NCBI GenBank assembly: GCA_013152375.1
Contig: JAADGM010000077.1
Coordinates: 1-52,379 of the forward strand
Direction of reading: 5' to 3'
DNA: 52,379 bases
From: FCB group bacterium
GTDB taxonomy: Bacteria; Fidelibacterota; Marinisomatia; SCGC-AAA003-L08; JACNLC01
A program made the translations under genes and the position numbers. The notes beneath the pieces are model-generated. The model saw nothing but the letters and a program-made list of their open reading frames with translations. It searched no databases and was not told the origin of the DNA. Shown in pieces: positions 1,634 through 18,718 of the stretch. The first letter of the stretch is position 1; each line of letters opens with the position of its first letter.

Positions 1634-3244
1634 TTATTTATTTTCCTCAAAATAAGGTTGGCCGGGTAATTTGAAATTGATCACCTGTTCTTTCATGGCT
1701 TTGCCGTCCACGGCTTTCCTGTCTTTGTAGAAATTCCATGTTTTCTGAACAGCCTTGTTATTCGTAAACTGAGTGCCGAGGTAGTAATCACGGTTTTCAA
1801 AACGATCCAGCCACAAGTCCCACTGGTCTTTGGAGAGCAGTCCCTTCTCGTAAGCGGCCTGGACATTCAATTTGACGCGCTCCCAGTAATCGTCGTAAGC
1901 TTTATAAACATATGGTGTCGTGTTCGTCATGGCTCCGATGCCCCAGGAATTTCCGGGAACATCATAAAGGGCGTAAGGCGTGAATTTTGCCGGACTGTTT
2001 GAAGTTACCCACTCCTCCGCCTCAGCGTCTCCGTGTTCAGCCGCCCAGGTGAGAAGTTCAACCATATCCTGCTGGATCTCCCACACCCCGTGCCACTGAG
2101 TATAATCAGCGCCCATCATCTCGGCACCGTGCCTGAATCTCCGCCCTTCGTGGTGCCAGGCCTTGTACATCAGGACCTCCGGCTCCTCATCCCAGCCGTT
2201 TAAAACCGGATTAGACATCATTTTATCATCAGCCTGAATTTGATTGATGAGACCGTTTTTGGTCAGTTTTTTGGTCCAGTAAACAAAGAACCGTCGCATT
2301 TCATTGTACTGCAAATTCACCAGATCAGCCGTAAGCAGGTACATCTGATAAAACCCGGGGGCGTGACAGCTCTGACAGATGGCCTCCATATTATCCCTTT
2401 TCTGCTGCCAGTCACCCAGGTTCTTCTCGTCCCACACTGTTCTGAAACTCCAGGGAGCCTGGGATTCCCAGGCGAGCCGGGCGCTGACATTATGGGTCAT
2501 GGGTTGGGATTCGTTACCGTCCATGTGGCAGGTTGTGCAAACGGGCGCCTCAATGGGGATGGGAGCATTGTCTTTAGAACTGAACCCCATATCCCAGTCT
2601 TTGCTCTTGGCCTTGAAGATGTTCCCGTGTTTGGATTCATTGTAGATTTCGATGTGCGGATGATCCGGACCGATATGGCATTCGCCACAGGTCTCAGGCT
2701 GTCTGGCTACAGCAATATCAAAACTGTGTTTGGGGTGACAGGCATCACATTCACCCACGCTGCCGTCGGGCCAGAGATTACCGATCTGATGGCATTGTTC
2801 ACAGCCATTCCGGGTACTTAAAGGATTTTCGAATGTTGCCCGGTCGGCATTTGCCAACAGCCAAAACTGATGGGCATGCTTGCTGTTATTAAATTCTGCC
2901 ACTTCTTTATCGTGGCATTCGGCGCAGTCTTTCGGCGTGGGATGCTTGGCAACCAGAATATCACTGCCCTCGCAGGTAAAGGCGTCAAAATCAGCTTTTT
3001 TCGCGGAATGGCATTCATAGCAGCCGACCTCATTGGCTGCATGCGCGCTGATGCCCCAGGCTTCAATTTGTTTTACGGCGATATTTTCTTTGCTGTGACA
3101 AGCGATGCATTTCGCCGACAGGTCATCGATCTCCAAAGCCGGGTCCAGTACGGGGGTTGTCCCTGCTGCCAGCATCGTCAGCAGCATACCGCACATCAGC
3201 ACCGCAGACCTGATGTTCAAAAGTTTGTGTTGGGTTGTTTTCAT
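1634..3244 (-). CDS. Periplasmic octaheme cytochrome c of the hydroxylamine oxidoreductase (HAO) family, probably reductive/epsilon-Hao-like
   Basis: Sec-type signal peptide; eight CxxCH motifs (CIACH, CYECH, CAECH, CEQCH, CDACH, CGECH, CTTCH, CQSCH); HAO-type CHxGPDHP, IYxESKHG and APxCxTCH motifs; C-terminal WHHEGRR...MMGADYTQWHG. Confidence 0.88.
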   Translation of the reverse strand: MKTTQHKLLNIRSAVLMCGMLLTMLAAGTTPVLDPALEIDDLSAKCIACHSKENIAVKQIEAWGISAHAANEVGCYECHSAKKADFDAFTCEGSDILVAKHPTPKDCAECHDKEVAEFNNSKHAHQFWLLANADRATFENPLSTRNGCEQCHQIGNLWPDGSVGECDACHPKHSFDIAVARQPETCGECHIGPDHPHIEIYNESKHGNIFKAKSKDWDMGFSSKDNAPIPIEAPVCTTCHMDGNESQPMTHNVSARLAWESQAPWSFRTVWDEKNLGDWQQKRDNMEAICQSCHAPGFYQMYLLTADLVNLQYNEMRRFFVYWTKKLTKNGLINQIQADDKMMSNPVLNGWDEEPEVLMYKAWHHEGRRFRHGAEMMGADYTQWHGVWEIQQDMVELLTWAAEHGDAEAEEWVTSNSPAKFTPYALYDVPGNSWGIGAMTNTTPYVYKAYDDYWERVKLNVQAAYEKGLLSKDQWDLWLDRFENRDYYLGTQFTNNKAVQKTWNFYKDRKAVDGKAMKEQVINFKLPGQPYFEENK

Positions 3245-3261
3245 TTTTTCTCCTCGTTTGA

Positions 3262-16404: not shown

Positions 16405-16426
16405 TCGGGTTTTGTAATAAGTAGAA

Positions 16427-18718
16427 TCATCTCAAAGCTCCTTTTTCCCCTGGGCTGTGATGGCCGAATTCTCCGCCCCCCTGGTATCGAAAGGGCAGGA
16501 CAATCCTGAATACTGTAAAACGGGGTCTGTTCTGTAACAAAATCACCGAGCCGCCATGGGCTTCGGCAATCCGCTTTCCGGTAGATAATCCCAGGCCGGT
16601 GCCCATATCACTCCCTCGTGTGGTGAAAAAAGGATTGAAAATATCTTTCACGATGGCTGGATCGATCCCCGGTCCGGTATCTTCAACGTCAATAACTATC
16701 ATCTGCCTGTCATCATCGTTGGAAGTCCGAATTCTGACCTGACCTCCAATCTCTTTCACAGCCTGAATGGCATTCAGGATAATATTGGCAAAGATCTGTT
16801 TCAACCTGCTTAAATCCCCTTCGATTTCCGCCTGTTCCGCATCCAGATACAATTTAACGGCTATATTAGCCTTTTCATGCAGCGGGACCAACAGGCGTAT
16901 GGTTTGATTAATGACCTCATGGATATCCACCTTGCTGATATTCAGTGTGGGAGTTCGGGCAAAATCCAACAGATTTGTGATGATTTCACGACAGGTTTCC
17001 GTATTTCTTCGAATGACATCAACGTGTTCGGTGAATTGGGAGTCCTGGTCGAATTCATCCATCATCATCTGATTATACATGGAAATCGCTGCCAGGGGGC
17101 TGTTCATTTCGTGGGCAACCACTGCTGCCATATTTCCCAGCACTGCCAGGCGTTCCTGCCGGGCATGTTTATCGTGCATCAGCGTTCTTTCGGTTATGTC
17201 TCTGGCCACCAGTATTTTCCCCGCACCTCCGCTCATGGCCGGCAGCTTCGTGGCCAGAATTTCAAAGAAACGCTCTTCCATTTTTACTGTACAGTCCTGC
17301 ATGGACGAAATATCCATCAGGCAGTTGACGCATTCTCTGGCAGTTGATTTTTCAGGGTGTTTGCATTCGAATTTTTCGAGCTGTTTATCAGGTGAATTCA
17401 AATAAGCGATCAGCGGTTCACCGGCCTGATTGTGAAGCACGATCTCACCGGCGCTGTTGAGCAGGATCAAACCGTCATTCATCGAATTCACAACCGCTTT
17501 CAAACGGTCGTGCTGAATGCGGATTACTTTTTCACGTTCGGTTAAGTCAGCGGCTGTTTTTTTCAGTACCCGCGTTCTTTCTTCCAGCGCTTCAGCCATC
17601 TGATTGAAGCTGGTGGCAAGGTCACCGATCTCATCTTCTGAATCCGTTACCACCCGGGCGGAATAATCCCCCTCTTTGATGTTAAAAGCCATCGTCTCAA
17701 GCTCACTTAGAGGCTGTATGAGAAACCGTACCGGGAAGTACATGGCAATCAGGATCAAAAGAGCGATGAGCAGTCCGACGAAAAAAAGTTTTTCTTCCAA
17801 AACAGAGATGGTTTTCAATGCACTTGAAGTTCCCAACTCAACCAGGATCGTCCAATTAACATACTTCAGGGGGAAACTGTAGCCAAACATATCCTCGCCG
17901 TCTCTGCAGATGTGTCGGCCTTCATGGGAATTTGCTCCCGGGGCGTAACCCTCAGTAGGCCGCTTCAGGTTCAGATCGATTAGCGCGACATTTTCCCGTT
18001 CATTCAATGTCCACCAGGGAATATCGAGAACACTGCCGGTCTGATCGATAAAAGAGAGATATTTTTCCACATCTGAAAATGACATGGCCTTTTGATATTG
18101 GCCTGAAATGTAATTGATAACACTGCGGAAATCCACGACACACACCAGATAGCCGATATGTTGTGTCTGATGAATATTGATCAGAGGAGTCACAATGGCA
18201 AATTGCGGCTCGTTATTCCCCGCTGCAGATTGAAACAGAGGACTGTACCACAATGTATCCTGTCCCAATCCTGCTGAAAGCATACGGCGGAGCCGGTCAT
18301 CGGACGGGAACACGGATACAAGCAGATTTGAATTGTTGTCAAATACCAGAAGGTTCGAGAATTCCTCAACGATGGGCAGTTTATTGATCAGCAGGTGATT
18401 TATCAGACGCTCTTTCGTTTTTGACTCCGTTTGCGGGTCGGTTTCAAGAAGTTCCGTCTGTGTCCGGATAAAGCCGTCCGATGCGAAATCCTGTGAGCGC
18501 CGCCCCAGCAGCAGCAGATGCTGATCGAAAACAGAGGCCTGGGCCACTGTTTCACTTTTCAGACGGGTCTGGATTTCTCTGGACAGGCTGGCATGGACGG
18601 ATTTAATAATGAGAAATCCACCCAGCCCAAAAGCGATTAAACTCACCATGACAAAGCTCAGCGGCAGTTTGTATTTTATGCGGAGTTTCGCCAGAGGATC
18701 TTTTTGTAACCAGTTCAA
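16427..18718 (-). CDS. Membrane sensor histidine kinase (periplasmic Cache-like domain, HAMP, Cys-containing PAS, HisKA, HATPase)
   Basis: Two TM helices, HAMP (DEIGDLATSFNQM), PAS (MNDGLILLN...G.I...N), H-box VAHEMNSPL, N/G1/F/G2 boxes (NAIQA, DTGPGI, FNPFFTT, GTGLGL). Confidence 0.93.
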   Translation of the reverse strand: MNWLQKDPLAKLRIKYKLPLSFVMVSLIAFGLGGFLIIKSVHASLSREIQTRLKSETVAQASVFDQHLLLLGRRSQDFASDGFIRTQTELLETDPQTESKTKERLINHLLINKLPIVEEFSNLLVFDNNSNLLVSVFPSDDRLRRMLSAGLGQDTLWYSPLFQSAAGNNEPQFAIVTPLINIHQTQHIGYLVCVVDFRSVINYISGQYQKAMSFSDVEKYLSFIDQTGSVLDIPWWTLNERENVALIDLNLKRPTEGYAPGANSHEGRHICRDGEDMFGYSFPLKYVNWTILVELGTSSALKTISVLEEKLFFVGLLIALLILIAMYFPVRFLIQPLSELETMAFNIKEGDYSARVVTDSEDEIGDLATSFNQMAEALEERTRVLKKTAADLTEREKVIRIQHDRLKAVVNSMNDGLILLNSAGEIVLHNQAGEPLIAYLNSPDKQLEKFECKHPEKSTARECVNCLMDISSMQDCTVKMEERFFEILATKLPAMSGGAGKILVARDITERTLMHDKHARQERLAVLGNMAAVVAHEMNSPLAAISMYNQMMMDEFDQDSQFTEHVDVIRRNTETCREIITNLLDFARTPTLNISKVDIHEVINQTIRLLVPLHEKANIAVKLYLDAEQAEIEGDLSRLKQIFANIILNAIQAVKEIGGQVRIRTSNDDDRQMIVIDVEDTGPGIDPAIVKDIFNPFFTTRGSDMGTGLGLSTGKRIAEAHGGSVILLQNRPRFTVFRIVLPFRYQGGGEFGHHSPGEKGALR

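Follow-up and report, generated by a model that had tools for sequence, protein, structure and literature searches.

A nar operon adjoining an rrf2-octaheme cytochrome c pair in a Marinisomatota genome: a probable lineage-specific fusion of two respiratory modules

The window, i.e. the whole stretch of 52,379 nucleotides (nt) that was analysed, is contig C106 of a metagenome-assembled genome (MAG) of the Marinisomatota (Marinimicrobia), which comprises 2.6 Mb in 150 contigs and is 89% complete. We describe an array of genes for nitrate reduction that ends in a gene, hao, for an octaheme cytochrome c of the hydroxylamine oxidoreductase (HAO) family. Pfam and NCBIfam profile searches together with the map of open reading frames (ORFs) identified eleven genes, all on the minus strand from 18718 to 1634, in the order histidine kinase, response regulator, narC, narG, narH, narJ, narI, narK1, narK2, rrf2 and hao. 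This is the order proposed in a first-pass annotation made from the sequence alone; the terminator that it placed behind hao at 1571-1600 was also found, as a hairpin and T-run at 1572-1600. Each part can be assigned to a known family; what is unusual is the rare pairing of a Nar operon with rrf2 and an octaheme gene. The features are collected in Table 1. In the following, G, C and L stand for genomes, contigs and loci, G000 being the source genome of the window.

Table 1. Genes and sequence elements of the nar-rrf2-hao locus, in window coordinates and in the direction of transcription.
Feature	Positions	Strand	Evidence
Sensor histidine kinase	16427-18718	minus	Pfam: weak dCache, HAMP, PAS, HisKA, HATPase
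Sigma54-dependent response regulator	14992-16404	minus	Pfam and NCBIfam: REC, AAA+ sigma54 activator, HTH_8
Sigma54-like -24/-12 element, AGGCAC-N5-TTGT	14640-14654	minus	About 60 nt upstream of narC
NarC-type diheme cytochrome c, 279 aa	13741-14580	minus	Two CxxCH, PF00034
NarG, cytoplasmic-type catalytic subunit	10080-13730	minus	TIGR01580, 1516 bits (cut-off 1084)
NarH, iron-sulfur subunit	8570-10060	minus	TIGR01660, 663.5 bits (cut-off 524)
NarJ chaperone	8035-8565	minus	PF02613, 31.8 bits (cut-off 22.2)
NarI, diheme-b membrane subunit, quinol oxidase	7343-8038	minus	PF02665, 188.6 bits; TIGR00351, 114.8 bits (cut-off 105.55)
NarK-family major facilitator superfamily (MFS) transporter 1	5754-7298	minus	TIGR00886, 278 bits, below cut-off 311.7
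NarK-family MFS transporter 2	4074-5720	minus	TIGR00886, 285 bits, below cut-off 311.7
Perfect palindrome, TTATGA-N3-TCATAA	3922-3936	unstranded	narK2-rrf2 spacer; one exact copy in window
Rrf2-family regulator	3262-3804	minus	PF02082, 80.4 bits (cut-off 30); likely start M25 at 3732
Octaheme HAO-family cytochrome c, epsilon-Hao-type ortholog, 536 aa	1634-3244	minus	Eight CxxCH; PF13447, 89.9 bits (cut-off 21.9)
Intrinsic terminator	1572-1600	minus	11-bp stem with 6 GC pairs, then T-run; 3' of hao

The histidine kinase and response regulator genes are 22 nt apart and are followed by 411 nt before narC; gaps from narC through narK2 do not exceed 44 nt, narK2 and rrf2 are separated by 341 nt, and rrf2 and hao by 17 nt. 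This spacing suggests three units, i.e. the two-component pair, narC to narK2, and rrf2-hao. No terminator-like site was found in the narK2-rrf2 spacer, so that read-through is possible. Within C106 the only ORFs with at least two CxxCH motifs are those of HAO and NarC, and genes for NrfA, NirK, NirS, Nap, Hcp or a NapC/NrfH-type protein were, as had been said, absent from the window. An origin of the locus as a mobile island was considered as well and is not supported, since the flanking genes are housekeeping genes and the GC content is flat.

The nar genes encode a membrane-bound nitrate reductase that had been predicted to face the cytoplasm, and this was borne out: the N-terminus of NarG has no twin-arginine (RR) leader and carries HGVNCTGSC, an H-x3-C-x3-C pattern that we take to be the N-terminal His/Cys motif of the FS0 cluster. 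The start of narH was set to the ATG at 10060 and not to the TTG at 10186. NarJ scores 49.7 bits with TIGR00684, under the cut-off of 59.35, and its placement between narH and narI fits the assignment. NarC contains the heme sites CKVCH and CVSCH and, read by eye, a hydrophobic N-terminal signal and a C-terminal hydrophobic stretch at about 232-256. Its gene lies 10 nt ahead of narG as the first gene of the nar operon, and together with the two NarK transporters this confirms the Thermus-like layout that had been proposed. The name Thermus is absent among the best 120 NarC homologs, the closest of which is that of G008, a member of the same family as the window.

This module is conserved within the family. 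G004, G006 and G008 carry the kinase, the regulator, narCGHJI, narK1 and narK2 at 53-91% protein identity (kinase 53-70%, response regulator 63-76%); NarK1 is 76-89% and NarK2 64-91% identical in the nar modules of relatives. In G004, G006 and G008 narK2 is the last gene of the module; unrelated genes come next, with neither rrf2 nor hao, and G006 has no HAO-family match at all.

The first-pass annotation credited the whole array with regulators of its own, and for the nar part this holds: the two-component pair travels with nar, an upstream element is conserved and rpoN is present (contig C92). Taken alone, the sigma54-like element in Table 1 is no better than chance, as a scan of the whole window gave 33 matches to the consensus where 48 were expected. 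When the spacers between the response regulator gene and narC of four family members were aligned, overall identity was 58%, yet a GG-N10-(G)C/T element was invariant (at GG and TTG) in all four. Nothing comparable was found upstream of rrf2: the narK2-rrf2 spacer has no sigma54-like element at up to two mismatches, and a match at 3717-3731 overlaps the rrf2 start codon. The spacer does contain a perfect palindrome, a possible operator, which was absent from the loci of relatives in which it was searched.

The octaheme protein has a signal-peptide-like N-terminus, and a GAGGAG ribosome-binding site precedes its ATG. Its best matches bear the names Marinimicrobia, KSB1 and Calditrichia; identity is 65-72% to orthologs linked to nap, Rieske and cytochrome b genes and 60-68% to proteins of Calditrichota. 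By sequence, its relatives in the PDB are IhOCC (4qo5, the closest solved structure), HOX (4n4j) and HAO (4fas). Lack of the tyrosine that cross-links to the catalytic heme is a mark of the reductive enzymes of the HAO family. Alignments to 1fgj, 4fas and 4n4j, by sequence and by profile, end at about query residue 320-335, ahead of the cross-link tyrosine region; Y453, which is invariant across the ortholog set, lies beyond the point where they end.

A quick maximum-likelihood tree was built from 83 rows, from which L018, L028, L042, L075 and L084 had been dropped because the ORF was short or had fewer than seven heme motifs. The window HAO falls in a clade of five rows with four loci linked to Rieske/cytochrome b and nap genes, including G007 (SH-aLRT 95), within a clade of 23 rows supported at 100. 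In this tree the window octaheme is thus an ortholog of the nap-linked epsilon-Hao clade, in agreement with the identity first assigned to it. Of the columns that do not vary among the 20 other orthologs it departs from a single one, by R285N (window 2390-2392), just upstream of the eighth heme motif; other aligned HAO sequences depart from such columns 0-7 times. From its sequence, the hao gene looks intact.

The Rrf2 protein contains the cysteine motif C-x6-C-x7-C-x2-H, presumably the Cys3(+His) cluster-ligand pattern known from IscR and NsrR, with slightly different spacing. Its scores with the equivalog models are below cut-off both for NsrR (NF008240, 22 bits against 182) and for IscR (52 against 207).

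The neighbourhoods of hao were compared in public genomes and in a sample of the phylum. From the public genomes the best 80 loci were taken, 23 of which contain close relatives of the window HAO (46-69% identity), and neighbouring genes were clustered and scanned with Pfam. Rieske and cytochrome b genes both lie directly upstream of hao in 8 of the 23 loci and at least one of them in 10, several loci being cut by contig ends. A molybdopterin/NapA-type gene is near hao in nine, usually in the order porin-napM-napA-napG-napD-napF-napH-Rieske-cytochrome b-hao, and a conserved gene of about 175 aa (165-180 aa) follows hao in eight loci (Deferribacterota, Desulfuromonadales and others). Only one locus (L016) has a NarG-like gene near hao, and this is distant (30% identity).

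The phylum sample comprised 401 genomes, 38 with NarG and 68 with an HAO-family match at E<=1e-40. Orthologs of the window type (65-71% identity) are present as complete or nearly complete copies in 13 other genomes, and fragments in G042 and G001. G007, from the family of the window, has the full porin-napMAGDFH-Rieske-cytochrome b-hao array. G001, from the same genus, has DUF3047 and MPG followed by no more of hao than some 150 codons of its 3' end (residues 387-536, 76% identity; L109, C97:3338-3961), past which the sequence jumps to a porin region that in G000 is found on C68. The break reflects either a rearrangement or deletion breakpoint within hao or an assembly chimera. The remnant in G001 and the relatives that have the nar module only indicate that hao beside MPG is ancestral in the genus, that the locus is unstable and that the window is a lineage-specific mosaic.

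The rest of the source genome was searched with profiles for other sinks of nitrite, as the first-pass annotation had advised. In this 89%-complete MAG neither NrfA (PF02335) nor NirS (PF02239) nor Hcp (TIGR01703) was found, and no protein genome-wide is more than 22% identical to NapA. The conserved downstream gene of about 175 aa of the hao loci of Deferribacteres was likewise not found in this genome. Matches to PF03264 (NapC/NirT) lie only inside large multiheme ORFs on C82 and C103, the one on C82 within an ORF with 17 hemes. A search for NosZ (PF18764) was silent here and in control genomes alike and is hence uninformative.

Two candidates were rejected. A protein on C53 scores 89.8 bits with NirK against a cut-off of 296 and looks like a multicopper oxidase, leaving no bona fide NirK. 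The only NIR_SIR protein of the genome, on C37, could have been a cytoplasmic nitrite reductase; it sits with phosphoadenosine phosphosulfate (PAPS) reductase (CysH) and cysteine synthase (CysK) and is therefore taken as an assimilatory sulfite reductase. A second octaheme of the HAO family was also seen (G000:C101:1713-2957; 415 aa, 8 CxxCH). It is about 26% identical to the window HAO, has a very long branch in the tree and has no respiratory neighbours (YchF and E2-acyltransferase-like genes).

We consider it probable, at roughly 0.6, that the locus joins two respiratory modules native to this Marinisomatota MAG, a nar operon and an rrf2-hao unit for nitrite reduction, in a fusion specific to its lineage. 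The reading starts from what was directly observed, i.e. the gene identities, the gene order and the separate conservation of the nar and hao modules in relatives. The first module would consist of a cytoplasm-facing NarCGHJI with two NarK transporters, expressed from a sigma54-type promoter driven by its own Cache-type kinase and sigma54-dependent regulator. The second would be a bicistron of an Fe-S-type Rrf2 regulator and a periplasmic octaheme of the epsilon-Hao clade, whose ancestral partner, the Rieske/cytochrome b pair, would have gone from the locus. With the searches for NrfA, NirS, Hcp and a bona fide NirK all negative in the 89%-complete MAG, a route in which Nar turns nitrate into nitrite and the octaheme then reduces the nitrite in the periplasm is plausible on sequence grounds.

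In such a route NarI would oxidise quinol and Nar would reduce nitrate in the cytoplasm, generating proton-motive force as is established for the family. One NarK would import nitrate and one would exchange nitrate for nitrite. The octaheme would reduce nitrite in the periplasm, most likely to ammonium; since neither Hcp nor another hydroxylamine sink was found, direct six-electron reduction to ammonium would be the most economical course. Rrf2 would probably sense nitric oxide (NO), nitrite or redox state and control rrf2-hao. For ammonium as the product we lean on in vitro work reportedly done with epsilonHao. Formation of ammonium from nitrate has also been described for cultured nap-hao organisms in parts of PMC5317091 and PMC6896113.

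Several observations weigh against a functional fusion. NarG is present in none of the 15 other phylum genomes with a hao ortholog or fragment, so that adjacency of nar and hao amounts to 1 in 16 and could be a neutral rearrangement, and G001 has its 3' remnant of hao at the syntenic DUF3047-MPG site and no NarG. The terminal branch of the window HAO, at 0.40, is two to three times longer than those of its siblings (0.12-0.19). The spacer between narK2 and rrf2 suggests separate transcription, the absence of the cross-link tyrosine is not readable in alignments that end where these do, and NrfA or Nir could be missing from an assembly that is 89% complete.

The uniqueness of the arrangement among relatives, the truncated hao that is all G001 keeps at this site, the long branch and the 341-nt spacer would also fit an accident of rearrangement as the cause of the adjacency, with hao a decaying or functionally unlinked relic left after loss of nap, Rieske and cytochrome b genes. 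We regard this as quite improbable, because the ORF is intact with eight heme motifs, signal peptide, good ribosome-binding site and terminator, because a single deviation at invariant columns is inside the range of the other sequences, and because hao is coupled at 17 nt to an rrf2 gene whose clade is found ahead of HAO-like and nar genes in other genomes.

The direction of the nitrogen chemistry was also considered. The cluster of the Nitrobacter nitrite oxidoreductase (NXR) is described in part of PMC7694296 as very similar and as having a NarC homolog, 'nxrAB' is annotated in Marinimicrobia MAGs according to an excerpt of PMC8163782, and a cbb3 oxidase is encoded in this genome. The Nar-like enzyme could accordingly be an NXR of the Nitrobacter type that passes electrons through NarC to the cbb3 oxidase, with an oxidative octaheme. 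This is highly improbable: NarG, NarH and NarI exceed their equivalog cut-offs, two NarK transporters are present, the HAO ortholog clade is linked to nap in anaerobic nitrate ammonifiers, and no context of ammonia oxidation was seen.

Beyond the orthologous hao, related genes are found beside nar elsewhere. G083, G220 and G229, which represent two further families of the class to which the window belongs, have a supercluster on one strand in the order rrf2-narC-narGHJI-narK1-narK2-RIC/ScdA-ActABCDEF-Alginate_exp-type porin-HAO-like-MoaA (L118 and L119, G083:C7:50000-75854; L120 and L121, G220:C4; L122, G229:C19). Its HAO-like octaheme of 486 aa is paralogous to the window HAO (34% identity). 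A MAG of the Blastocatellia (Acidobacteriota; L068:1-13625) has narHJI-ActABCDE, a 786-aa MFS fusion, an HAO-like gene (446 aa) and a histidine kinase gene. The linkage of hao to nar in relatives, which had been put forward as a check, thus failed for orthologous hao and stood for the paralogous HAO-like genes of G083, G220, G229 and the Blastocatellia MAG.

In five genomes rrf2 lies directly before an HAO-like gene of 441-442 aa (L132, G059:C22; L134, G130:C93; L133, G134:C12; L135, G157:C58; L131, G117:C329). In four of them, G059, G130, G134 and G157, a pentaheme ORF of 493-496 aa follows; the one that was scanned with Pfam, in G059, belongs to the NapC/NirT family and is followed by a porin gene. 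The best homolog of the window Rrf2 within the phylum (42% identity) is that of G117, directly before its HAO-like gene. In 15 genomes a homolog of Rrf2 is encoded immediately upstream of narC, a place that in family f1 is held by the histidine kinase and sigma54-dependent regulator genes; the two are alternative ways of regulating one and the same nar operon. An HAO-family gene is present in 18 of 38 NarG-positive and 50 of 363 NarG-negative genomes, counts that are not a statistical test since the genomes are mutually related. Judged by gene neighbourhood, these data support the view that octahemes of the HAO family, nitrate reductases and this Rrf2 clade form one functional neighbourhood, with a role that would concern nitrite derived from nitrate.

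An observation in its own right is that an Alginate_exp-type porin recurs near nap-hao, nar-ACIII-hao-like and solitary hao-like genes (L008:2002-3444, L118:5292-6437, L127:10286-11437, L132:11469-12776 and G000:C68:4558-5787), where ACIII is alternative complex III. It may be an anion porin for nitrate and nitrite.

The NO sensor NsrR is one of the Rrf2-family regulators that have Cys3 ligands. This kinship would suit a role of rrf2-hao in nitrosative stress, i.e. a detoxification unit that clears nitrite, NO or hydroxylamine arising from Nar and adds nothing of substance to respiration or ammonium formation. The RIC/ScdA di-iron repair gene right after narK2 in the superclusters and the rrf2-HAO-like units without nar in G059, G130, G134, G157 and G117 point the same way. 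We nevertheless hold detoxification to be somewhat unlikely, as the Rrf2 scores far below the cut-off of the NsrR model and no other nitrite sink was found in the MAG. Furthermore, cultured ammonifiers that have nap-hao and lack NrfA, Caldithrix abyssi and Deferribacter autotrophicus, produce ammonium from nitrate (sections of PMC5317091 and PMC6896113).

The octaheme requires a donor of electrons, and the first-pass annotation had assigned this part to NarI and NarC. The candidates are NarI-NarC in cis and, in trans, ACIII (C32), the Rieske/cytochrome b/nine-heme complex (C143) or other multihemes. In the strongest form of the first option NarI-NarC would be a dedicated wire from quinol to the periplasm for the octaheme, and Nar, NarC and HAO a self-contained module of nitrate ammonification. 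Thermus strains without NarC do not grow on nitrite or NO, and NarC has been proposed there as an electron bridge to periplasmic reductases (as given in part of PMC7694296). A quinol-oxidising module moreover adjoins the HAO-family gene in most contexts: Rieske/cytochrome b in 8 of the 23 public loci and in G007, ACIII in G083, G220, G229 and L068, and the NapC/NirT-like pentaheme in G059, G130, G134 and G157. NarI-NarC is the only such module in cis with hao in the window.

The distribution of NarC speaks against such a wire. NarC adjoins narG in 32 of the 38 NarG-positive genomes of the phylum (the remaining six are cut by contig ends or have no NarC match), and 17 of these 32 have no HAO-family match at E<=1e-40. 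Being common without HAO, NarC is to be seen as a regular fourth subunit of Nar in this clade, as in Thermus, and not as an HAO-specific device, which leaves the proposed supply of electrons by NarI-NarC unsupported. In G083, G220 and G229 NarC and ACIII occur in the same cluster, so that NarC is no substitute for a quinol module there. Nor is adjacency of a quinol module a rule, since the HAO-like gene of G004 and that of G008 stand alone but for a divergent porin gene. A dedicated wire is therefore rather doubtful.

The source genome encodes further components that could serve in trans. Its sole heme-copper oxidase is a fused cbb3 CcoNO, which ACIII adjoins on C32; Rieske, cytochrome b and a nine-heme cytochrome are found on C143, and an NrfD-type complex on C18. 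Additionally, there are very large multihemes with 23, 18, 17, 14, 11 and 10+10 CxxCH motifs (C140:38417-43090, C27:6064-7794, C82:2535-4544 and 389-2416, C8:8131-9306, C90), a rich set that suggests extracellular or metal-directed electron transfer.

A more general proposal would be that in Marinisomatota and some other phyla HAO octahemes are a modular periplasmic unit of nitrite ammonification with interchangeable quinol input (Rieske/cytochrome b, ACIII, a NapC/NirT-like pentaheme or, here, NarI-NarC), usually under control of Rrf2. This would give dissimilatory reduction of nitrate to ammonium (DNRA) that is independent of NrfA and conserves proton-motive force. We offer it as a speculative generalisation that is unlikely to hold.

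The idea that a nitrite reductase of the epsilon-Hao type stands beside a nitrate reductase has already been published for Nap. EpsilonHao (Haase et al. 2017; Hanson et al. 2013) is an octaheme for which reduction of nitrite and hydroxylamine to ammonium in nitrate reducers without NrfA has been proposed and, reportedly, demonstrated in vitro. The epsilonproteobacterial enzyme belongs to the octaheme HAO family like that of the window, and those organisms use Nap. No sequence from Campylobacterota was among the best 80 genome loci, so that the kinship to epsilonHao rests on the naming in the Caldithrix paper (PMC5317091).

That paper describes for Caldithrix abyssi a cluster napMADGFH-Rieske-cytochrome b-epsilonHao (Kublanov et al. 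2017, PMC5317091). The octaheme there is of the same clade, its gene is likewise the last one after a nitrate reductase cluster, and the organism lacks NrfA, which was not found in the MAG either. The window differs in having cytoplasmic NarCGHJI, two NarK and Rrf2 in place of Nap and Rieske/cytochrome b, a comparison made with the described cluster. With cytoplasmic Nar in the place of periplasmic Nap nitrite must be exported; furthermore, the quinol module adjacent to hao in Caldithrix is missing in the window.

For Deferribacteres an arrangement napMADGH-hao-small membrane protein(-hcp) has been reported, with a proposal of non-canonical ammonification (Slobodkin et al. 2019, PMC6896113, in part). 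The HAO proteins of the Deferribacter thermophilus and Denitrovibrio loci L020, L022 and L023 are 50-53% identical to that of the window and form a sister clade. Unlike the window, these loci have the gene of 165-180 aa downstream of hao as well as Hcp, neither of which was found here, and they have Nap and not Nar.

The nar part resembles the narCGHJIKT operon of Thermus thermophilus, in which a diheme membrane cytochrome c comes first and Nar faces the cytoplasm (PMC7694296, in part). The order is the same, i.e. NarC, narGHJI and two MFS transporters, and NarC is likened by architecture and position. According to the same portion of that paper, the Thermus operon is regulated by DnrST and DrpAB and feeds a cd1-type Nir and Nor, i.e. 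denitrification, in contrast to the histidine kinase, sigma54-dependent regulator and HAO octaheme of the window.

Finally, nar upstream of an ACIII-like six-gene cluster has been described from 13 MAGs, including Planctomycetota and KSB1 (Dalcin Martins et al. 2023, PMC10732223, in part). As in the window, nar is accompanied there by Rrf2-type ('FeTF') and sigma54/NtrC-type regulators nearby; nar is followed by a periplasm-directed quinol module, and the pattern fits G083, G220, G229 and L068. The section of that paper on the cluster does not mention HAO, and the ACIII-like complex is itself guessed there to be a nitrite reductase; the locus of the window has no ACIII. Searches of the main text of the literature found no description of a hao linked to Nar and NarC, in line with the first-pass annotation, which knew of no such system, and none of the nar-ACIII-porin-HAO-like superclusters.

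The Marinisomatota are among the most abundant nitrate reducers of oxygen-deficient ocean zones (PMC10359470, in part), and on the fate of the nitrite that they form depends whether fixed nitrogen is retained as ammonium or leaves the system. If octahemes of the HAO family coupled to Nar do ammonify nitrite, surveys based on nrfA as a marker would underestimate the potential for DNRA there. If the quinol input is indeed interchangeable, reduction of nitrate and the supply of electrons to the octaheme would in the window fall to one and the same membrane complex. One octaheme family behind four quinol modules, behind Nap or Nar and with a shared Rrf2 regulator is a testable pattern, and it raises the question whether the branching role proposed for NarC in Thermus extends to a lineage other than Thermus. 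The locus in the window is single, rare and possibly transient and is thus of moderate evidential weight; the pattern across the phylum merits the attention of specialists beyond this one locus.

Two further ORFs may be recorded. In the window, an ORF of 1243 aa at 35645-39373 has no Pfam match at E<=1e-5 and sits upstream of an Omp85/POTRA (BamA-like) gene. On C53, next to the multicopper oxidase, an ORF of 271 aa (L115:2177-2989, minus strand) reaches 129.6 bits with NF043039, the model of an HgcAB-like fusion, and so falls short of the cut-off of 285; Marinimicrobia that carry hgcAB have been reported (PMC8163782, in part).

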